The notes: generated from the sequence alone by a model not told the origin. A DNA stretch of 32,000 bases from Promethearchaeia archaeon (GCA_046497275.1 JAWOFX010000080.1:45562-77561); one strand, 5' to 3'; shown: positions 1 through 23,454, counted from the first letter of the stretch. Made by a program: numbers and translations.

Positions 1-714
1 GACATCTCCATCAGAAGGTCTTAAAACTTTTCCCGAGTAGGGGCCACTAGCACTTAAAATACGTTCAAATTGAATACTGCTGAGCACATTTTTATATTTC
101 CCAAATCCCAAATTTTTATTTAAAGTAGGTTCAAACTCCTCAAATCCAAGAGCTAAAATGATTGAACCAACATTTATTTTAGAATTTTTATCTTTTAAAT
201 CATAATTAATAGCGTTCGCTTTACAAACTCCTCTACAAATCCCACATCCAATACAGATATCTTTGTTAATTGCATATACCAAAGGAACTGCTTGGGGATA
301 TTTTACTGAAGCTGCTTTATTTAATGATAACCCCTCATTGAATATGTCAACTGCTTCAGTTGGACATTCTTGACCACAAACTCCACATCCTGTACATTTT
401 TCTTGATCTATATATAAAGTTTTTTCAATTATTTCAACATTAAAATTACCAGATTCACCAGAAATATTTTCAATCTCAGAGTTTATTTTAATTTCAATAT
501 TTGGATGTCGTCCTGCTTCAACCAATTTAGGAGAGACTATACAAATTGCACAATCATTCGTAGGAAACGTTTTGTCAAGCTGGGCCATCACTCCTCCGAT
601 GCTTGTTGTTTTTTCCACGAGATAAACTTTAAATCCAGATTCGGCTAAATCTAGGGCCGCTTGACAACCGCCAATTCCAGCTCCGACCACCATCACTGCT
701 CCAACTTTTTCCAC
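1..714 (-). CDS. hdrA: Heterodisulfide reductase subunit A-like FAD/Fe-S protein, 5' part (runs off the window edge)
   Basis: Not in the ORF track. Manual translation from GTG 714: VEKVGAVMVVGAGIGGCQAALDLAESG...MAQLDKTFPTNDCAICI...CTGCGVCGQECP...CIGCGICRGVC...FERILSASGP. GGAGG lies just upstream, within the end of mvhD. Confidence 0.95.
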   Translation of the reverse strand, partial: MEKVGAVMVVGAGIGGCQAALDLAESGFKVYLVEKTTSIGGVMAQLDKTFPTNDCAICIVSPKLVEAGRHPNIEIKINSEIENISGESGNFNVEIIEKTLYIDQEKCTGCGVCGQECPTEAVDIFNEGLSLNKAASVKYPQAVPLVYAINKDICIGCGICRGVCKANAINYDLKDKNSKINVGSIILALGFEEFEPTLNKNLGFGKYKNVLSSIQFERILSASGPYSGKVLRPSDGDV

Positions 715-719
715 CTTTT

Positions 720-1490
720 TTATCCCTCCATCACATTTAGATAAATTGGTGTAATTCCTACAATCTTATCCATAGCAATTTGACCTCGTTGCTTCAATAC
801 TAAAATATGATCCAAAATTTCACTTGGCTTTATTTCAAACTCAATCGCTAAATCTTTTACTGATTTTGGATCTTTCTTTAATGAAACGAGAATACGATGG
901 CGAACATATTCATCATAAATTGCTTTAATGAAGAGTTCCTTAAATTCTTCCTCCGGAATTTTTTCTCCATACACATTTTGTTGCTCTGTTAATGCTCTTT
1001 CTCTGCCTACTAATGCCCTCATTCTATAACTCGTAGATGCCATCTCTAATGATTTTATTTTATCAACCAATTCGATATTCTTCTTCCTATTTTGTAGAGG
1101 AGAGGGTCCTAAATCTTTGATGTGATTTGTAAAATTCGTAATTATTTCGGCAAATCGATTTCCCTCTGATGCTGAGACCCATTCTAATCTGATTCGATCT
1201 TCAAAGCCAACAAAACTTAAGAATTGTGTGATCATTTCATATTTTATTTCTGCTTCATAATTGCCTTCAAGATAATGACAATCTCCCGGATGGCATCCCA
1301 TCACAATAATACCATCTATTCCACTTAGAAATCCTTGAAAGATGAATTCGGGATCCACTCTTCCACTACACATTACTCGAATTACTCTCAAGTTCGGGGG
1401 ATATTGTATCCTACTCACTCCTGCTAAGTCAGCTCCCGCATATGAGCACCAATTACATAGAAATCCCAAAATTTTCGGTTCATAACTCAT
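720..1490 (-). CDS. mvhD: MvhD/FlpD [2Fe-2S] hydrogenase delta subunit with a C-terminal extension ending in a winged-HTH-like segment
   Basis: FLCNWCSYAGAD, RVMCSGRV and GCHPGDCHY motifs in the first ~130 aa; tail KSVKDLAIEFEIKPSEILDHILVLKQRGQI looks like an HTH. Confidence 0.92.
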   Translation of the reverse strand: MSYEPKILGFLCNWCSYAGADLAGVSRIQYPPNLRVIRVMCSGRVDPEFIFQGFLSGIDGIIVMGCHPGDCHYLEGNYEAEIKYEMITQFLSFVGFEDRIRLEWVSASEGNRFAEIITNFTNHIKDLGPSPLQNRKKNIELVDKIKSLEMASTSYRMRALVGRERALTEQQNVYGEKIPEEEFKELFIKAIYDEYVRHRILVSLKKDPKSVKDLAIEFEIKPSEILDHILVLKQRGQIAMDKIVGITPIYLNVMEG

Positions 1491-3172
1491 GCGATTTCTC
1501 TCCCTCCTAAGGCATATATTTCTGATAATATTTGCTCATTTGTGAAATGTTTGATTTGGATTGCTTTCTTTGTACAAGAGGCACCACAAAGACCACATCC
1601 TTTACATAATGCTTGAATAATTTCTATTTCGTCCTCTTCATTTTTTCTTATTGCTCCATAAGGGCATATTTCAATACAAATTTCGCATCCTTTACATAAT
1701 TCTTTATTCCATTCTGGAATATAAGCGGTACTTCCTTGGATCTCTAAAGTATCATGAGAAAGTATTGTACTTGCTCTTGAAGCCGCTGCTCTACCTTGAG
1801 TTAACGCCTGACCGATATCAGTTGGCCATTTAGCAGAACCGCATAAAAATACCCCATCTGTAGCAAAATCTATAGGTCTTAATTTTACATGTGCTTCTAA
1901 GAAAAAGTTATTCTCTTCCAAAGGAATTTTTAAAAGTTGAGCAAGATTTTTATTATTCTCATTTGCTATTAAAGGAGTAGATAAAACCAGTAAATCATAG
2001 GGAATACTCATATCTCTTCCTAAATACTCATTAAAAACGTGAACTTCTTCTTTTTTCACTATTGGCTCTTTTTCAGGTGAATATTTAATGAATAATATTC
2101 CTAATTCTCTTGTTTTTCTATAATATTGTTCATTTCTCGTACCTGGAGTATATATATCTCTAAATAAAATGCTTATATTTGCTTCTGGATTTTTTTCTTT
2201 AATAATTAAAGAATTTTTTAAAGCAGTCATACAACAGATACTTGAGCAATAATTTCTCTCTTCACAGCGAGCCCCAACACATTGTATCATTACTATGTTG
2301 TTCTTGTCAAAGGATTCTTCTTTTAATATTTTCTCTAATTCAAGTTGAGTGACTCTCACTTTCCCATCATAACCATATATATTTACAGGTTGAAAGGTTG
2401 ATGCGCCTGTAGCAACTATAATTGCTCCCACTTGTAATTCCTGGATTTTACTATTTTGTTCAATAATTACATTAAAATTTCCTAAATATCCATTGATTTC
2501 TGAAACCGTTGATGATGTTAAAATCGTTAAATTATTCGCATCTTCTATCTGATTTTTTAAACCTTCAAGGAATTTTGATGCTTTAATATTATCGGGATAA
2601 ATCGTATTTAATGAATTTAGCATGCCACCAATTCTCTCTTCTTTTTCTATAAGAAATGTTTCAAATCCTTGTTTACTTAAACTTAAAGCAGATGATATGC
2701 CTGAGACTCCCCCTCCAATTACAAGCGCTTTAGACTCAATATCAATTGAGATATCCTCTAAAGGTTCTAATTTTTCTGCTTTAGAGACTCCCATCTTAAT
2801 TAAATCTAATATTTTATTATAAGCTTCATTAGGATATTTTGCATGAACCCATGTACATTGATCTCGAATATTGACGAAATTAAAGAGATATTTATTTAAG
2901 CCTGCCTCTTGGACAGTTTCTCTAAATAAAGGTTCATGAGTTCTTGGAGTACAAGAGGCAACAACAACACGGTTTAAATTATGTTCCTCTATAGCTTTTT
3001 TTATAGAATTTAACCCATTTTCAGAGCACGTATAGAGGTTATCCTCACTATATGCAACTTTTGGAAATTCTTTGATCTCTTCAGCCAATTTTTTACAATC
3101 AACTAAGCCCCCGATGTTAGAACCGCAATGACATACAAAAACCCCTATTCTAATATCATCATTATTAGTAAT
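1487..3172 (-). CDS. hdrA: HdrA-like protein (C-terminal half of a split long HdrA); true start probably ATT at 3170-3172
   Basis: The track starts at TTG 3088, but the frame stays open for 28 codons upstream through the conserved RIGVFVCHCGSNIGG motif. ALVIGGG, CSSICC and C-terminal ferredoxin (CKGCEICIEICP, CKGCGLCGASC) motifs are present. Confidence 0.9.
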   Translation of the reverse strand: MTNNDDIRIGVFVCHCGSNIGGLVDCKKLAEEIKEFPKVAYSEDNLYTCSENGLNSIKKAIEEHNLNRVVVASCTPRTHEPLFRETVQEAGLNKYLFNFVNIRDQCTWVHAKYPNEAYNKILDLIKMGVSKAEKLEPLEDISIDIESKALVIGGGVSGISSALSLSKQGFETFLIEKEERIGGMLNSLNTIYPDNIKASKFLEGLKNQIEDANNLTILTSSTVSEINGYLGNFNVIIEQNSKIQELQVGAIIVATGASTFQPVNIYGYDGKVRVTQLELEKILKEESFDKNNIVMIQCVGARCEERNYCSSICCMTALKNSLIIKEKNPEANISILFRDIYTPGTRNEQYYRKTRELGILFIKYSPEKEPIVKKEEVHVFNEYLGRDMSIPYDLLVLSTPLIANENNKNLAQLLKIPLEENNFFLEAHVKLRPIDFATDGVFLCGSAKWPTDIGQALTQGRAAASRASTILSHDTLEIQGSTAYIPEWNKELCKGCEICIEICPYGAIRKNEEDEIEIIQALCKGCGLCGASCTKKAIQIKHFTNEQILSEIYALGGREIA

Positions 3173-4485
3173 TAAAATTCACCTCCTTTAATAATCTCTG
3201 CTGCGCTTGATGCAGCAGCACTCGCCTCGGCCACTGTTTGTGGGATATCCATAGGTTCATGAGCACATCCACATGTAAAAATGCCTTCTCTTGAAGTCTC
3301 TATTGGAAAATAAGGATCTGTCTTGATAAAATCAAAATCATCTAATTGAATACTAAGAACATTAGCTAATTCTTGTATTCCTTTTGGTGGAACTATACAA
3401 GTAGCTAAAACAACTAAATCAACCTTCAATTTTTGGATTTCTGAAGTATCAAAATTTTCATAAGTTATAATGGGATTCTCTTTCTTATCTATACTAATTT
3501 CAGGAATTTTACTTTTAATATAATTAATATTATATTCATTTTCCCCTCTTTCTATAAATTTAGTAAATCCTTTTCCCCCTGCTCTAATATCAATATAAAA
3601 AATATAAGATTCAATTTCATTATCGTGTTCATAGGCTATCATTGCTTCTTTTGAAGTATACATACAACAAATAGAAGAACAATAATCTTTGTTTCTTTTA
3701 TCTCTAGATCCAACACACTGAATATATGCTATCTTTTTTGGCTTCTTTCCATCTGAAAGCCTTTTAATATGCCCTCCTTGGGGTCCAGAAGCACTTAATA
3801 ATCTTTCGAATTCTAAGGCAGTAATAACATTTCTAAATTCTTTATAACCATAGTGGTTTAGTGGGATTGAATCTTCTATAACATCATAACCCACAGAAAC
3901 GATTATAGAGCCAATGTTATCCAATTTTAATATTTCTTCTTTTTGATCAAAATCTATTGCATCTTTATCACAATTCTTTTCGCATATTCGACACGCTTCT
4001 TTTGTGAACCATAAACAATGTTCTGAATCTATAGTCATTACAGCTGGAACACCTTGTAGATAATATAAATATATGGCTTTACGGTGTCTTAAACCTCTAT
4101 CAAATTCATCCTCTACGCGCATTGGACATTTTTCAGCACACTCACCACAATTAATACACGCATCTTCTTTTACATACCGTGGCTTCTTTAAAATTTCAAT
4201 AGAATAATTTCCCTTCTCTCCATTAATTTTTGTTATTTCTGAAAGCGTATGGAGAGTAATATTAGGATGTCGATAACATTCAGACAATTTTGGGGCTAAA
4301 ATGCAGATTGAACAATCATTTGTGGGAAAAGTTTTGTCTAATTGGGCCATTCTGCCACCAATACAGGGTTGCTTTTCTATTAAATGAACATGAATATTCA
4401 TATCTGCTAAATCTAAGGCAGATTGAATTCCTCCAATTCCTCCGCCAACAACAACTACACTTTTAGAATTTTTCAAGGATCTCAC
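3172..4485 (-). CDS. hdrA: HdrA-like protein (N-terminal half of a split long HdrA)
   Basis: VVVVGGGIGG FAD motif, MAQLDKTFPTNDCSICIL, CINCGECAEKCP, FERLLSASGP, CSSICCMY. Confidence 0.93.
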   Translation of the reverse strand: MRSLKNSKSVVVVGGGIGGIQSALDLADMNIHVHLIEKQPCIGGRMAQLDKTFPTNDCSICILAPKLSECYRHPNITLHTLSEITKINGEKGNYSIEILKKPRYVKEDACINCGECAEKCPMRVEDEFDRGLRHRKAIYLYYLQGVPAVMTIDSEHCLWFTKEACRICEKNCDKDAIDFDQKEEILKLDNIGSIIVSVGYDVIEDSIPLNHYGYKEFRNVITALEFERLLSASGPQGGHIKRLSDGKKPKKIAYIQCVGSRDKRNKDYCSSICCMYTSKEAMIAYEHDNEIESYIFYIDIRAGGKGFTKFIERGENEYNINYIKSKIPEISIDKKENPIITYENFDTSEIQKLKVDLVVLATCIVPPKGIQELANVLSIQLDDFDFIKTDPYFPIETSREGIFTCGCAHEPMDIPQTVAEASAAASSAAEIIKGGEF

Positions 4486-4525: not shown

Positions 4526-5416
4526 TTATTTAAGAAAATTGAGTTCTTGCAGTAAAGCAGTAGGTTTAGCTCTATGATAATTGAACCCTAGTTCGTTTGG
4601 ATTTATCCCAAATGCCAAAGCAACCAATTCGGATAAATAAAAAATCGGAACATCATAATTAGTTTCATTTAATTTATTTAACTCCCTTTGATTAAAATCA
4701 AATTGTTGGTAACACGCGGGACATACTAACGCCACACAATTGGCTCCAGAATTAATGATAGATTCAAGTTTGTTCCCAATCATGAGAAGGGATAAATCTT
4801 TATCGGATTTATCAACAGGATTGCCACAACATTCTAATTTCAACTCATATTCTATAGTTTCAGCTCCAAGAGCTTGAATTATGCTGTCTATAGTAAACGG
4901 TTCAAAAGGATCATCCCAATCTATTATTTCTGATGGTCTTAAATAATGGCAACCATAATGCACAGCTACCTTAAACCCATCTAAAGGATTTACAAGATTT
5001 TTCTTAATCAATTCTAAATTTTCATATAAAACCTGACCAAAATGCTTTACACTTGTTAAACCATCATATTCTTTTCCGACTTTTTTTAATATTTTATTAG
5101 TCTTTGCCTTGACTTCTTCATCTTTCTTGATATGATAATTTACTCCCTTAAGCGTTTCGACACATCCAGAACAAAGCGAAATAATCCCACCGTTTCCATT
5201 ATTGCTTAAACTTAAGTTTCTAGCCCCCAATGCTAACCAGGTATTTTGATCAATCTGCTCTATCCCTGTTGGGTCCGGACAACAACTAAACCCATCAACA
5301 TCATTAAGTTTTATCCCCATCTTGTCAAAAATCTTTCGAGCAGAAGCCTCAAGGAAAGGAAGCCTGGCTGGGATTACGCATCCCAAAAATAAATCATACT
5401 CCATCTCATTTCTCAC
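4526..5416 (-). CDS. hdrB: Heterodisulfide reductase subunit B (CCG domains); start may be ATG 5404
   Basis: FLGCVIP, SCCPDPTG, CSGC, HYGCHY, CCGN, CPAC motifs. Confidence 0.93.
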   Translation of the reverse strand: MRNEMEYDLFLGCVIPARLPFLEASARKIFDKMGIKLNDVDGFSCCPDPTGIEQIDQNTWLALGARNLSLSNNGNGGIISLCSGCVETLKGVNYHIKKDEEVKAKTNKILKKVGKEYDGLTSVKHFGQVLYENLELIKKNLVNPLDGFKVAVHYGCHYLRPSEIIDWDDPFEPFTIDSIIQALGAETIEYELKLECCGNPVDKSDKDLSLLMIGNKLESIINSGANCVALVCPACYQQFDFNQRELNKLNETNYDVPIFYLSELVALAFGINPNELGFNYHRAKPTALLQELNFLK

Positions 5417-5903
5417 CTAATTTAATTTTATTTTCTATTCCCGTTTCTTTAAAAATTGGCTCTAATTCCTTCATCTCTGCTGTTTTAATCTCCGGGAGAT
5501 TCATCTTTTCTCGTCTAGATAAAATAGATTTTGAGAAGGGGATTGCAATACCTTCGTTAACAATAGCTTGGGCTTGTAATAAAAATGCTTCTGGCAATTT
5601 ACCTCTCTCAAAGCAACGGTTTTTAATCACGGAAAAGATTTCTGTTAATTCTACTTTTTGAGGACATAATTCTAAACATTTTTGACATGTGGAACATAAC
5701 CACACATTTGGGTTTTGCTCCTCAATTAACTCCTCTTCAAATCCAAGAAGTGCAAGCTCTATTATTTTCCTTGGATTATATTTTCCTTTAGTCATTAACG
5801 CTACAGGGCATCCGCTTGAACACGTAGAACATTGATAACAATAACTTAATGACGCATTATACTGCAAAATCTCATTTCTAAATTCAAAATTAATTAAACT
5901 CAA
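5406..5903 (-). CDS. hdrC: Heterodisulfide reductase subunit C
   Basis: CYQCSTCSSGCP and CSTCQKCLELCP; TTG start 6 nt after GGGTGA. Confidence 0.93.
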   Translation of the reverse strand: MSLINFEFRNEILQYNASLSYCYQCSTCSSGCPVALMTKGKYNPRKIIELALLGFEEELIEEQNPNVWLCSTCQKCLELCPQKVELTEIFSVIKNRCFERGKLPEAFLLQAQAIVNEGIAIPFSKSILSRREKMNLPEIKTAEMKELEPIFKETGIENKIKLGEK

Positions 5904-6002
5904 TATTTATCACCCAAATTTACAAATTCTTTTTAAAAAATATCTCAATTCTTTCCAACCTTATTATTTTTATTCTTAATTCTTAATTTTTTTAAGAAAA
6001 TC

Positions 6003-6272
6003 CTATTTTTGACCTAATTGCTTATCAATATCAATGAATATGGGGATTTGTTCCTCATCCTTCTGAATTATCACCTTAAGGATTCCATCTTCGATTTTTG
6101 TACTAATTGGCGTTATTTTTTTCGGTTTTGGCTTCCCTGATTTTTGTTGTTGCATATTCAAACATGTATGCTCTTCATCATAAAGATTACATCTGGAACA
6201 ACAAAACCCAATAGGCATATATCCCACTATACTGCACTTTTCATAATTGTCGCAATTACAATTATTACACAA
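6003..6272 (-). CDS. Small Cys-rich protein, paralog 3 (TTG start)
   Basis: MCNNCNCDNYEKCSIVGYMPIGFCCSRCNLYDEEHTC; GAGGTGA upstream; same motif as its two neighbours. Confidence 0.85.
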   Translation of the reverse strand: MCNNCNCDNYEKCSIVGYMPIGFCCSRCNLYDEEHTCLNMQQQKSGKPKPKKITPISTKIEDGILKVIIQKDEEQIPIFIDIDKQLGQK

Positions 6273-6306
6273 CTTCTTGGCCTCACCTCTCTAATTTAAG
6301 GAATTT

Positions 6307-6537
6307 TTACGGAAAATTCTCTAAATCTCTGTCGGATATTTTTAATTTTTCTAAGAACTTTTGAGCAATTTCAATATCTTCTTTATGATCCTCTATTTTT
6401 TTCTGGACTTGCTCTTTTAATCTCTTACAAGTCGTTCCCTCTTCATAAAAATTACAATTTGGACAACAAAATCCCAAGGGTATATTCCCTACAATTGAAC
6501 ATTGATATTGGTTATCACATTGGCAATAGTTACAAAT
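6307..6537 (-). CDS. Small Cys-rich protein, paralog 2 (76 aa, putative ATT start; missed by the ORF track)
   Basis: Manual translation: (I/M)CNYCQCDNQYQCSIVGNIPLGFCCPNCNFYEEGTTCKRLKEQVQKKIEDHKEDIEIAQKFLEKLKISDRDLENFP*. Aligns without gaps to both neighbours over 37 aa. Confidence 0.85.
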   Translation of the reverse strand: MCNYCQCDNQYQCSIVGNIPLGFCCPNCNFYEEGTTCKRLKEQVQKKIEDHKEDIEIAQKFLEKLKISDRDLENFP

Positions 6538-6559
6538 GATACATCACTCAGGTTTTTGA

Positions 6560-6808
6560 TTATGGATATAATTCAACCGATTTTTCTAATCCACTTTCTA
6601 ATGTTATGCCAGTTTTCACTTGAAATGGCTCGGGAAGAACCTCGAACATAACCATTTCTTCCACTTTCGGTTTTATCACTTGGCTTATATAATGTGAACA
6701 CGTATGCCGCTGGTCGTAATTCACGCATTTCTCACAGCACGCGCCGAAATGCAAATGTCCGACTATAGAGCAAAGATAGGAATTTTCACATTCGCAATTA
6801 TTACACAT
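6560..6808 (-). CDS. Small Cys-rich protein, paralog 1 (ATG 6808; the track extends it to GTG 6817)
   Basis: MCNNCECENSYLCSIVGHLHFGACCEKCVNYDQRHTC; GAGTGA 5 nt upstream of the ATG. Confidence 0.85.
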   Translation of the reverse strand: MCNNCECENSYLCSIVGHLHFGACCEKCVNYDQRHTCSHYISQVIKPKVEEMVMFEVLPEPFQVKTGITLESGLEKSVELYP

Positions 6809-6961
6809 TTTTTTCACTCTTTTTTTTTTGAGATGTTTGTGATTTTTTTATCACAAGAATCTTAGTGATATATTATTCAAGTCACCTATATAAATCTAAT
6901 GATCGGAATCGTGCAAAAGCTCTGTAAAGTGACAAAAATCTCTATGAGATCCACGAAAAGG

Positions 6962-7408: not shown

Positions 7409-7818
7409 TTACTTGATAATTTCCTTAAATTCTTGAATTATTTTTAGTGTATCCTCTTGAAAGTTTTTTAAATAGGAAAAGATCTTTTCAGAATTGACCT
7501 TAATATATTGATGTACTAAAAAATTTCTTAAATTCTTAAATTCTTAAATTCTTTAATTAAATCATAGTTTTCAAGTTTTGGCTTTAAAAGTTCAAGGATC
7601 GAATCTTCAGATGTCGGAGGTCCTAAGTTAAAAAATTTCACTAATTGAATACAAATTTGAATTATTGCTTCTATTATGTTTTGCATATTTCGCTCTATCG
7701 CAGCCTGAAGTTTTAAATCTCCGAGGAACACTTCTTTGTTCTCTGGTGTCCATAGCCCTAATAAATTTAATTGATTTTCAATAAAAGCAATTCTTTGAAG
7801 AATTCGTTCATAAGCCAT
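7409..7818 (-). pseudogene. DUF86/HepT-type HEPN RNase toxin frameshifted by an extra 8-bp repeat unit
   Basis: Removing one AAGAATTT unit gives ...KEFKNLRNFLVHQYIKVNSEKIFSYLKNFQEDTLKIIQEFKEIIK* (133 aa) and restores the RX4HXY motif. Confidence 0.85.
7521..7553. repeat. Tandem octamer repeat (AAATTCTT)x3 plus one variant unit
   Basis: Perfect units at 7530-7537, 7538-7545 and 7546-7553; variant AAATTTCTT at 7521-7529. Confidence 0.95.
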
Positions 7819-8188
7819 TTTTGACCGGCTCCAAATATAATTCATAATATGGTCGGAATGATTCCCATTCTTTTATAATATTAATGAAAATATCAAATAT
7901 TTGAGAGTAGTCCTTGTAAAATAGAATTTTTCCTTTAATCGCCTCTTTCGCGATAATTATAGGCATATCGGTTAGAAAATGCGCATCAAACTTTTCTGGG
8001 AACTGTAAAAGATATTTTAAAGATTTGGAATTTGAGTTAGGCTTTCTAACTATAGCAAGATCGATATCATTATAATTATCAGAATTAAGTGCGCTCCCGT
8101 ATAAAATGGCAGCTAGAATATCGTCATCTTGCTTTAGTTCTGTAATTATTCTGTACAATTTTTTTTTATCATTATCAGAGAGATACAT
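7808..8188 (-). CDS. Minimal nucleotidyltransferase (MNT) antitoxin
   Basis: LYGSALNSDNYNDIDLAI (GS...DxD); overlaps the HEPN start. Confidence 0.88.
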   Translation of the reverse strand: MYLSDNDKKKLYRIITELKQDDDILAAILYGSALNSDNYNDIDLAIVRKPNSNSKSLKYLLQFPEKFDAHFLTDMPIIIAKEAIKGKILFYKDYSQIFDIFINIIKEWESFRPYYELYLEPVKNGL

Positions 8189-8441
8189 ACCCAATCACAA
8201 CGTACTTTTTTGCATATATTAATCTGAAAAAGACTCGTGAAATTTCAATATTAAATATGAGTAAAAACTTAAGTTGATATATATAATCATAAAATGCTCT
8301 TATATTTAAAGGATCTATAAAAATGTTTAGAGTTATAATTTTCTATTAGGAATTGTAGAAATGGATTCATTAAGGGTTGGCTTTCTTCTACTTACACCTA
8401 AATCACTATTTATTTGTCTAACAGCGTTAGGAAAAGCGGTA

Positions 8442-22044: not shown

Positions 22045-22932
22045 TTATTTTAGATTATATTTTTCTAAGAGATCATTAGCTCGAGCTCGATGGTACTTCA
22101 TTCCAATATCATCTGGACTAATTCCAAAAGATAATGCTAATAATTCCGTAACATATAGAATTGGAATATTATATTCCTCGTCGAATAATTTCTTAAGATT
22201 TCTCTGATTGGTGTCCATTTGTTGGAAACAAGCAGGACAATTGATAACAAAACATTCGGCACCTGCCTTTAAAGCACTATCAAATTTATTTTTTAAGATT
22301 TGCATCGATGGTTCTTCTTCAGCATTTCCGACTGCATTGCCACAACAAAGCACTTCTTCCTCATAATCTACTGGAGTCGCGCCGGTAAGTTTTACAATCT
22401 CTCTTAATTTTACTGGTTCCATTGGATCATCAGTTTGCAGGATTTCTGAAGGTCTATTATAATGGCACCCTGTATGACATGCAACCTTAAGACCGGATAA
22501 ATCATTGACTACATTTTCTTTTATTTTATCGGGGTTAATATCATAGAGAACTTCCACAAAATGTTTTACATCTATAGTACCTTTGAATTCTTTATCAATT
22601 GTTTTTAAAATTTCATTAACTTTTTCCCTTACCTTTTCATCATGCTTTAATTCATGATTTACGCATTTAAGAGTTTGAAAACATCCATTGCATAATGAAA
22701 TAATGTTTTTCTCTTCATTCTCTCCGATAATTAGATTATTGGCACCCATCGCTAACCAGCTTGTATGATCAACTTGCTTAAAACCAGTAGGATCTGGGCA
22801 GCAACCAAAAGGGCCTTCAGATGTCTTTATTCCAAGAATATTAAACACTTTTCTAGCAGAAGCTTCTATAAATGGAATTCTATTTCCAATCACACATCCT
22901 TCGAATAATTTGTATTCCTCTACTTTTGCCAT
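22045..22932 (-). CDS. hdrB: Heterodisulfide reductase subunit B
   Basis: FEGCVIG, GCCPDPTG, CNGC, HTGCHY, CCGN, CPAC. Confidence 0.93.
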   Translation of the reverse strand: MAKVEEYKLFEGCVIGNRIPFIEASARKVFNILGIKTSEGPFGCCPDPTGFKQVDHTSWLAMGANNLIIGENEEKNIISLCNGCFQTLKCVNHELKHDEKVREKVNEILKTIDKEFKGTIDVKHFVEVLYDINPDKIKENVVNDLSGLKVACHTGCHYNRPSEILQTDDPMEPVKLREIVKLTGATPVDYEEEVLCCGNAVGNAEEEPSMQILKNKFDSALKAGAECFVINCPACFQQMDTNQRNLKKLFDEEYNIPILYVTELLALSFGISPDDIGMKYHRARANDLLEKYNLK

Positions 22933-22935
22933 TTC

Positions 22936-23454
22936 TTATTCCTCTTTATTTTGTTGTAAAATCACATTTAATTTAGATTTATTGAAAATTTTTTGAATCT
23001 CCTCAATATTAGGAGCTTCGATCTTGGGTAGTCCCAAATCATCTCTTCTTCTTTCTATAGCAGATTGCATAGGTATTGCTTTTCCATTTTCATAAATAGT
23101 AGTAGCTTGTTGAGTATAGTATTCAGGACCCTCCCCTCTTTTAACACTCATATTTTTTAATACTGTAAAAATTTCTGTTAATTCAATGTTTTGCGGACAT
23201 ACTTCATCACAAGTATCACATATAGTACAGCCCCAGAGATAAAATGAATCTTCTGAATCTAAAATACTTGGTTGAATGCCCAAAAAAGATTTTAAAATGA
23301 TATCTCTTGGGTCATATCTCCCGGGAGCGACTTTTGCGACGGGACAATTATCTGTGCAGCGATTGCACTGATAACAATACTTTAACGTATCATGAATATG
23401 AGCATCCATAATTAACTTTCTAAATTCATAATCAACACTTACCATAATTCTCAC
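22936..23454 (-). CDS. hdrC: Heterodisulfide reductase subunit C
   Basis: CYQCNRCTDNCP and CTICDTCDEVCP. Confidence 0.93.
   Translation of the reverse strand: MRIMVSVDYEFRKLIMDAHIHDTLKYCYQCNRCTDNCPVAKVAPGRYDPRDIILKSFLGIQPSILDSEDSFYLWGCTICDTCDEVCPQNIELTEIFTVLKNMSVKRGEGPEYYTQQATTIYENGKAIPMQSAIERRRDDLGLPKIEAPNIEEIQKIFNKSKLNVILQQNKEE

Follow-up and report, generated by a model that had tools for sequence, protein, structure and literature searches.

HdrABC-type complexes are central to the energy conservation of anaerobes. HdrB carries the CCG signature CXnCCGXmCXXC, which spans about 85 residues and binds a noncubane [4Fe-4S] cluster, and MvhD/FlxD is a small [2Fe-2S] adaptor that joins HdrA to its electron-input module. 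The substrates and accessory subunits of HdrABC in non-methanogens, among them the Asgard archaea, which are closest to eukaryotes, are to our knowledge largely unknown. For FlxABCD-HdrABC of Desulfovibrio and sulfate reducers, DsrC has been postulated to be the disulfide (PMC5296606; PMC6470260). We analysed a stretch of 32,000 nucleotides from a Promethearchaeia archaeon (GCA_046497275.1, JAWOFX010000080.1:45562-77561; below, the window), in which three adjacent genes for Cys-rich microproteins, g1, g2 and g3, lie upstream of an hdrCB-hdrA-mvhD-flxDCBA-frhB operon. Their products belong to a new, lineage-restricted family and are probably an unstudied partner of this Hdr-Flx redox enzyme.

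Small Cys-rich accessory proteins of redox complexes are already familiar as a kind, and we compared the microproteins with its described members. DsrC is also a small protein hypothesised to serve a Flx-Hdr type complex, with reactive or conserved Cys near a chain terminus, but it is about 105 aa long with a folded helical core, has two Cys in a C-terminal arm and is not encoded beside hdr, whereas the microproteins carry eight Cys in an N-terminal 37-residue module and have no predicted core and no sequence similarity to it. No DsrC/TusE match (PF04358) was found in the three proteins or anywhere in the 98.9%-complete genome. MvhD/FlxD (FlpD, PF02662) resembles the microproteins in being a small Cys-containing accessory protein of Hdr complexes, operon-encoded and sometimes fused to its partners; it is nevertheless unrelated, as the operon has three FlpD genes of its own, the microproteins give no FlpD match and the module is a quarter of the size. 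The module has CC-x2-C but lacks the CCG of the HdrB domain and has only 37 residues, and the microproteins gave no match to PF02754, while the neighbouring HdrB scores 1.7e-22.

Rubredoxins and 2x[4Fe-4S] ferredoxins are tiny Cys-ligated metal proteins often encoded beside their oxidoreductase, and the module has CxxC-like knuckles. It differs from them in lacking CxxCxxCxxxCP, in packing eight Cys into 37 residues, which leaves too little room for two cubanes, and in being followed by extra tails that are not Cys-rich; no Fer4 or rubredoxin profile matched any of the three proteins at an expectation value (E) up to 10, and CxxCxxCxxxC(P) was absent. The hallmark of rubredoxins and zinc ribbons is two CxxC knuckles about 20–30 residues apart in a small beta fold. 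C2-x2-C5 and C25-x2-C28 could be such knuckles; there was no Pfam or PDB match, and the AlphaFold2 model (predicted local distance difference test, pLDDT, 58) was too poor to compare. Bacterial metallothioneins of the SmtA/BmtA type have a similar Cys density, the motifs CxC, CC and CxxC and a fold expected to depend on metal. No homology to them was detectable, however, and no metallothionein family in Pfam matched the trio at E up to 10; its strict tie to the operon and its conserved non-Cys tails favour a specific partner over bulk buffering. In precursor arrays of ribosomally synthesised and post-translationally modified peptides (RiPPs), such as those of SCIFF/ranthipeptides, the Cys-rich core is C-terminal, whereas the Cys block of the trio is N-terminal and conserved. 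No RiPP maturase of the radical-SAM, YcaO or lanthipeptide type was present within 10 kb, where the neighbours are hdr genes and toxin-antitoxin pairs.

A preliminary description of the locus had proposed three adjacent, co-oriented genes with a shared module, and the open reading frames on the minus strand bear this out (Table 1). The genes are separated by 22 nt (g3–g2) and 34 nt (g2–g1), and a further 99 nt lead to the start of hdrC on the same strand, close to the 100 bp given originally. Residues 1–37 of the three proteins align without gaps, every product begins with Met-Cys, and C2, N3, C5, C7, N9, C13, S14, I15, V16, G17, G22, C24, C25, C28, Y31, T36 and C37 are identical in all of them. 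Together with BLASTP between the paralogues (g1 against g3, E 4e-15; g1 against g2, E 6e-17), the alignment confirmed the gap-free 37-residue module and its Cys pattern. Judged by this similarity, which is far beyond chance, g1, g2 and g3 are paralogues. The tails had been called unrelated; this holds among the three paralogues, but each tail is conserved in the orthologues of other genomes.

The initial Met of the module was correct as to its position, which is aligned in all three proteins, but the codon is TTG in g1 and ATT in g2. No ATG, GTG or TTG start is available to g2, and an in-frame TGA lies three codons upstream of the ATT at 6535-6537, which is aligned with Met1. In a congeneric genome (G278) the trio recurs with unchanged gene order, and the g2 orthologue there likewise starts with ATT; the g2 orthologues of G170 and G175 have GTG at the equivalent position. 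Cys1 is directly preceded by ATG in 69 of the 79 unique members collected in related genomes, by TTG in 3, by GTG in 3, by ATT in 2 and by ATC in 2. The ATT and ATC starts, four of the 79 plus those in G278 and G169 (loci L015, L023, L025, L097 and L105), each stand directly before Cys1 with a Shine-Dalgarno-like motif upstream; in the trio, GAGTGA or GAGGTGAGG precedes every gene by 5–10 nt. Because the G278 orthologue keeps ATT, and because nonsynonymous differences (pN) remain below near-saturated synonymous ones (pS), the ATT start of g2 is a conserved feature and not the mark of a broken gene. Selenocysteine read-through of the TGA before g2 was considered and rejected: the extension from a TTG 10 codons upstream is not conserved and overlaps the end of g3, and all other family members start with Met-Cys. 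Public gene calls (several database entries) often begin at the internal Met19 or omit the gene altogether; given the non-ATG starts, the Met19 entries look like gene-calling errors.

Against G278, where synonymous sites are near saturation, the pN and pS values were 0.27 and 0.90 for g1, 0.18 and 0.71 for g2 (both module and tail) and 0.27 and 0.80 for g3. By this measure all three microprotein genes are under purifying selection, in the module and in the tails. Pieces identical at 100% were found in salt-lake metatranscriptome contigs of two studies: the 5' region of g3 (6669-6833) in three runs, the g3/g2 junction (6453-6669), part of g1 (5981-6131), the g1–hdrC spacer (5801-5951), and hdrB and hdrC. 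DNA carry-over was uncontrolled in these data, the contigs have no transcript ends, and the uncovered parts (e.g. 6132-6452) say nothing, so that the matches agree with transcription of the trio region and fall short of proving it. It is clear from pN well below pS, Shine-Dalgarno-like motifs at fixed spacing and the identical metatranscriptome pieces that the trio genes are real.

With E values up to 10 allowed, the three proteins matched no Pfam family and nothing in a PDB sequence profile search, and in NCBIfam they gave only one row, for g2, at chance level (E 0.15; 10 bits, where the cutoff is 635 bits). An exhaustive HMMER search of 1.84 billion representative proteins with a 41-sequence profile yielded only 75 clusters with an E of 1e-3 or less; apart from a single one, they are 44–110 residues long. 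A word-indexed search of 5.8 billion proteins gave 253 longer matches; the best 120 of these 253 are all 82–134 aa long, without Pfam domains, and, where named, are 'hypothetical protein' entries from Lokiarchaeota/Promethearchaeota metagenome-assembled genomes. Two clusters of the ESM Atlas (105 and 88 members) belong to the family; they are 100% archaeal, most commonly Promethearchaeota. A literature search turned up no description of a small Cys-rich protein linked to Hdr in Asgard archaea. The family and its 37-residue domain are, as far as these searches reach, new and part of no described family, in keeping with the initial failure to recognise it; database names are all 'hypothetical protein'.

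The family can be defined by a Met-Cys start, the pattern C-x2-C-x-C-x5-C-S-[IV]-x-G-x4-5-G-[FA]-CC-x2-C-x2-[YF]-x5-C and a total length of 50–110 aa, features common to the three window proteins, the 79 unique members of related genomes and the 75 clusters. Over 78 diverse sequences, the counts for the eight Cys in order of position are 77, 78, 78, 78, 77, 78, 77 and 72, and the residues between them vary freely. Cys makes up 22% of the module, in CxC, CC and CxxC motifs. Since the module always begins at residue 2, it forms an exposed chain end. Three groups can be told apart by what follows. In type A, the group of g1, a Lys/Arg-rich linker leads to the tail PISTxIEDGxLKVVI...IPIYIDLQKQL; as the motif PISTxIEDGxLKVxI...IPIxIDxxKQL, this tail is kept in 35 orthologues of the type. 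No other member of the family is conserved as widely: type A is present in every multi-copy locus that we fetched and is the sole copy in the loci examined of genus g12 (genus labels such as g2 and g12 are distinct from the gene labels g1–g3 of this locus). The g2 orthologues have a charged tail that ends in K/N-[FY]-P, and the g3 group (orthologues P0005–P0007 and G278) has tails with LPxxFCLK, whose Cys is lost in g3, and with LYP at the end. One further sequence, P0078, with a type A tail and a CxxC-type N-terminus, was not used; it comes from a 632-nt contig at about 1x coverage. In P0080 (L113:705-1016), a weak match at E 5e-4, the module is accompanied by two predicted transmembrane helices. 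Its 3.2-kb contig is tightly packed with small genes without Pfam matches and is possibly a mobile or viral element; we left P0080 uninterpreted.

For the g1 tail, AlphaFold2 predicted a three-strand beta meander with a short helix at a pLDDT of 81–89. The module reached only 50–63 (50–59 within g1 with 41 sequences; the module alone with 78 sequences, 57.7), with no predicted secondary structure and no hydrophobic core, and since this was so even with the 78-sequence alignment, no fold can be claimed for it. Fold searches with the g1 model gave no usable match by VIA-align wide (best Z 2.5) or by Foldseek against the PDB (best E 0.5; Mop/tungbindin-like proteins and beta meanders of flavin adenine dinucleotide enzymes), and in the ESM Atlas only the family's own clusters rose above noise. 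Nor did feature searches with module or tail against the named ESM Atlas clusters give a usable match. A complex prediction of the operon's FrhB with g1 and two Zn scored 0.00; it was run without controls and speaks neither for nor against binding. Poor foldability, conserved Cys and variable spacers are typical of cofactor-dependent mini-domains. The eight near-invariant Cys in 37 residues, the missing hydrophobic core and the failure to fold in silico point to a domain that would be scaffolded by its cofactor. It is very probable that the module binds metal, iron-sulfur (Fe-S) and zinc both being possible.

The profile search for distribution, copy number and hdr synteny that the preliminary description had suggested showed a lineage-restricted family, present in one to three tandem copies next to hdr. 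The genome studied here has only the three module genes of the window. Among 400 genomes of the phylum, 115 have a family match, and 104 of these belong to the 134 genomes of the same taxonomic family (f1, Asgard archaea of the Lokiarchaeia type), each with one to three tandem copies; there are few matches in other families of the class. In 18 of the 19 f1 loci fetched with 8-kb flanks, the module genes lie 0.04–1.7 kb from hdrC of an orthologous hdrC-hdrB-hdrA-hdrA-mvhD-hdrA cluster. When module and hdrB coordinates were combined with the fetched loci, about 85 genomes had the module and the operon-type hdrB (68–77% identity) on one contig, about 2.5 kb apart or less. The module genes are upstream of hdrC and co-oriented with it in genera g1, g6, g8, g11 and g13 and divergent from it in genera g5, g7 and g12, so the neighbourhood has outlived at least one inversion. 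In the divergent spacer of genus g12 (0.36–0.57 kb; L039–L041, L047–L049) we noticed conserved GATC-bearing repeats, e.g. the words ATGATCAAAAGTGATCAAAA and GATCGATC, and, some 100 nt ahead of the start of the microprotein, a conserved TTTAAATA box; they could serve as operators or promoters.

Outside f1 the pairing recurs in three arrangements: in G144 the module genes are co-oriented directly upstream of hdrC, in G125 they lie between flxA and hdrCB, and in G129 frhB, a divergent Lrp-like gene and two module genes stand opposite hdrC. When 135 f1 genomes were scored for presence and absence, 96 had both module and operon, 5 the operon only, 9 the module only and 25 neither; relatives are not independent in these counts, and five genus g2 genomes (60–62% HdrB identity) were counted as having the operon. 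In three of the operon-only genomes (G157, G199 and G259, all fetched) the contig ends before the expected place of the module gene, and in the other two (G152 and G201) hdrB lies, by its coordinates, within about 1.1 kb of the contig start. Contig ends or N gaps explain four of the nine module-only genomes. G276, G277 (10 contigs) and G166, which are without the whole operon, are also without the module. The link is specific to this operon: about 22 HdrB/D-like proteins of the genome contain 43 CCG domains between them, and the module genes are found at this operon only. No module genes are near the second hdrC/hdrB-like pair of the window (22045-23454, with a 51% identical HdrB and neighbouring large genes to 26279), which served as an internal control of specificity, nor are there any in the paralogous, shorter flx cluster L110. 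One occurrence in a genome of another class, a type A gene on a 2.8-kb contig (L053, G075 contig 24), has a tail nearly identical to that of the G189/G169 subtype and adjoins a dihydrolipoamide-dehydrogenase-like gene; it probably reflects contamination during binning and not a distant occurrence of the family.

The sole long match of the exhaustive search was P0081, an FrhB-family protein of 386 aa (E 7.6e-4) with Fer4, FrhB_N and FrhB_C domains. It is 33% identical to the operon's own FrhB and has an insertion of about 45 residues between the N and C domains, which holds the module: seven Cys at the family spacing and the C-S-I-V block. A free family member of 77 aa is encoded 49 nt ahead of its gene, and an hdrC-hdrB-hdrA-mvhD-hdrA cluster lies 1.9 kb away from it, a second frhB standing between. 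In the operon itself frhB is the last gene, and in G129 frhB adjoins the module genes. As the module has been fused into an FrhB beside such an operon, P0081 gives independent support, of the Rosetta-stone type, for a module that works physically in the Hdr-Flx-FrhB system. With the neighbourhood kept across genera, and even families, through an inversion of orientation, and with this insertion, the proposed link to Hdr is now strongly supported. Of the findings named beforehand as refuting the preliminary description, neither a match to a known family nor a loss of Cys conservation has materialised, nor has a lack of hdr synteny, which would have refuted only the Hdr link.

Taking these results together, we favour, tentatively and at somewhat less than an even chance, an accessory subunit or adaptor of this Hdr-Flx-FrhB complex that binds metal and is specific to the lineage; the conserved and specific neighbourhood and the FrhB insertion support this reading best. 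The microproteins would be cytoplasmic, the 37-residue module being held together by metal on its eight Cys, and the family would serve one electron-bifurcating-type complex (hdrCB-hdrA-mvhD-flxDCBA-frhB). The module may dock on the HdrC/B or FrhB side, or lengthen its Fe-S wire, as in P0081, and the paralogue-specific tails may pick further partners, through the beta meander in g1 and, in g2 and g3, through tails that are charged or carry 'LPxxFCLK' and close with aromatic-Pro. Since many genomes are single-copy (genus g12), assembly of all three paralogues into a hetero-oligomer cannot be a requirement.

Several observations weigh against an accessory subunit. The Cys spacing fits no known Fe-S, rubredoxin or zinc-finger signature, and metal, cofactor and physical association, and with them any electron-transfer role, are inferred. 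Part of the co-absence of module and operon is trivial: in fragmented assemblies, neighbouring genes go missing together (G203). There are two true exceptions to the hdr neighbourhood: the module pair of genus g2 is unlinked from the operon (in G149, contig 1 against contig 7) and lies beside a flavin mononucleotide (FMN) reductase and a CxxCxxCC protein, and the type A gene of G169 adjoins a class-I disulfide reductase and MsrB instead. Sister lineages, including the closed genomes G135 and G143, keep FlxA orthologues (56–68% identity) with no module detectable by the 78-sequence profile; the microproteins are thus a lineage-specific addition and not a core catalytic subunit. In co-oriented genomes the gap between g1 and hdrC is 43–280 nt, which, with the divergent layout in three genera, shows that translation of the genes is not coupled to that of hdr. 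A divergent small gene also resembles a regulator.

Instead of a subunit, the microproteins might be a DsrC-like protein thiol/disulfide, the physiological oxidant/reductant pair of HdrB in these non-methanogens, with the module Cys cycling between dithiol and disulfide at the noncubane clusters; their role would be that of CoM-S-S-CoB (the heterodisulfide of coenzymes M and B) in methanogens, or that postulated for DsrC with FlxABCD-HdrABC in Desulfovibrio. The operon is of the Flx-Hdr type, for which DsrC is postulated in sulfate reducers (PMC5296606; PMC6470260), and PF04358 is missing from this genome. The genes are always beside hdrC/hdrB and not beside flx, the hdr-unlinked copies adjoin thiol-redox enzymes (class-I disulfide reductase and MsrB in G169, FMN reductase in G149), and a module that starts at residue 2 would offer an exposed end. 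A redox arm needs two Cys, however, and eight near-invariant ones speak for a metal site with a structural role; a diffusible substrate would be oddly placed as an insertion inside FrhB, between two of its domains, and related lineages keep FlxA orthologues without the module. We give this explanation a small chance.

A redox- or metal-sensing transcription regulator of the hdr-flx operon seems unlikely. Here the Cys module would sense, and the Lys-rich linker and beta domain of type A would bind DNA of the hdr promoter. The divergence of the gene from hdrC over a 0.36–1.7 kb spacer in genera g5, g7 and g12 is a classic regulator-operon layout, the type A linker is rich in Lys/Arg, and the GATC-containing repeats conserved in the g12 spacer are candidate operators; but the fold searches recognised no known DNA-binding fold in the g1 tail, the tails of g2 and g3 are quite different, a module inserted in an FrhB enzyme is hard to square with a DNA-binding sensor, and the G129 locus already has a canonical Lrp/AsnC-like regulator.

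We regard as very unlikely a dedicated maturation or metal-delivery factor, i.e. a small chaperone rich in Cys that would hold Fe-S or another metal for a short time and hand it to subunits of this very large, cluster-rich complex. The high Cys density, the strict tie to one operon encoding dozens of Fe-S sites and, by analogy only, the invariant Met-Cys N-terminus, which recalls N-terminal-Cys maturation proteins such as HypC, would suit such a factor, yet about 20 other HdrB/D-like proteins of the genome and the paralogous flx cluster are without one, and a permanent insertion in FrhB would be unexpected. A general metallothionein-like buffer or a RiPP precursor that is near hdr by accident, suggested by the Cys motifs and the 22% Cys or by tandem small paralogues with a constant N-terminus and a variable C-terminus as in precursor arrays, is highly improbable in view of the one-operon neighbourhood conserved across genera and families, the conserved orthologue tails with pN below pS, the negative Pfam metallothionein search and, for a RiPP, toxin-antitoxin pairs as upstream neighbours and no maturase within 10 kb.

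The accessory subunit or adaptor that we favour would belong to a complex whose genes follow g1 in the order hdrC, hdrB, hdrA (437 aa), hdrA (533 aa), mvhD (256 aa), hdrA (about 1000 aa), mvhD (256 aa), hdrA (1002 aa), flxD, flxC, flxB and flxA, with the FrhB-family gene last. The name 'Hdr/Mvh complex' given to it earlier was right in the Hdr operon but imprecise in 'Mvh', and no hydrogenase subunit was seen in the operon stretch examined. The first HdrA is split into two genes 83 nt apart (1487-4485); the later copies are fused double modules of about 1000 aa. In genus g12 (L039–L041, L047–L049) an FrhB paralogue, 33–37% identical to the FrhB at the operon end, is inserted between hdrB and hdrA. 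Just past the end of frhB (L066:4485-7928) lies a gene for a class II-type ribonucleotide reductase broken by an intein with a LAGLIDADG homing endonuclease. On the other side, directly upstream of the trio (7528-8194), there is a pair of a HepT-like protein (105 aa, shorter than the 120-residue profile) and an MNT nucleotidyltransferase, and HEPN/NT, HepT/MNT, PIN and DUF5615/DUF433 pairs up to 14.4 kb form a toxin-antitoxin-rich island that bounds the operon. An Rfam scan of the whole window found no family.

Table 1. Microprotein genes, their parts and the adjoining hdr genes, in positions of the window
Feature	Position	Strand	Remarks
Gene g3, 82-aa microprotein	6560-6808	-	ATG start; 8-Cys module and 'LPxxF(C/Q)xK ... 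LYP'-type tail
Gene g2, 76-aa microprotein	6307-6537	-	ATT start; 8-Cys module and charged tail ending NFP
Gene g1 (type A), 89-aa microprotein	6003-6272	-	TTG start; 8-Cys module, Lys-rich linker, conserved beta tail
g1 module, codons 1-37	6162-6272	-	C-x2-C-x-C-x5-C-x10-CC-x2-C-x8-C (alignments)
g2 module, codons 1-37	6427-6537	-	Alignment
g3 module, codons 1-37	6698-6808	-	Alignment
g1 tail domain, residues 50-89	6006-6125	-	Predicted three beta strands and short helix
Shine-Dalgarno-like GAGTGA, 5 nt ahead of g3 ATG	6814-6819	-	Sequence reading
Shine-Dalgarno-like GAGTGA, 6 nt ahead of g2 ATT; its TGA is the in-frame stop	6544-6549	-	
Shine-Dalgarno-like GAGGTGAGG ahead of g1 TTG	6281-6289	-	Sequence reading; upstream strings of relatives
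hdrC, 165 aa, 4Fe-4S dicluster	5406-5903	-	99 nt downstream of g1
hdrB, 296 aa, two CCG domains	4526-5416	-	
hdrA, 437 aa	3172-4485	-	
hdrA, 533 aa	1487-3088	-	
mvhD/flpD, 256 aa	720-1490	-	
Start of double-module hdrA	1-714	-	Operon runs on outside the window (locus L066)

A conserved microprotein family with an expressed look, annotated only as 'hypothetical' and often mis-called, is thus tied tightly to one Hdr-Flx-FrhB operon. It illustrates how AUU and AUC starts in archaeal microprotein genes cause gene-calling errors, and it is a clean example of a new Cys-rich domain beyond the reach of current structure prediction. The microproteins also offer a small, easily expressed experimental handle on the Hdr-Flx-FrhB complex. 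They might even be the missing redox partner of the Asgard Hdr-Flx, either as a protein dithiol/disulfide standing in at HdrB for CoM-S-S-CoB or DsrC, or as a dedicated mini electron carrier, with tails that route electrons to different enzymes. We think this rather doubtful, but if true, it would put forward a candidate for the substrate that HdrABC homologues of non-methanogenic archaea reduce.

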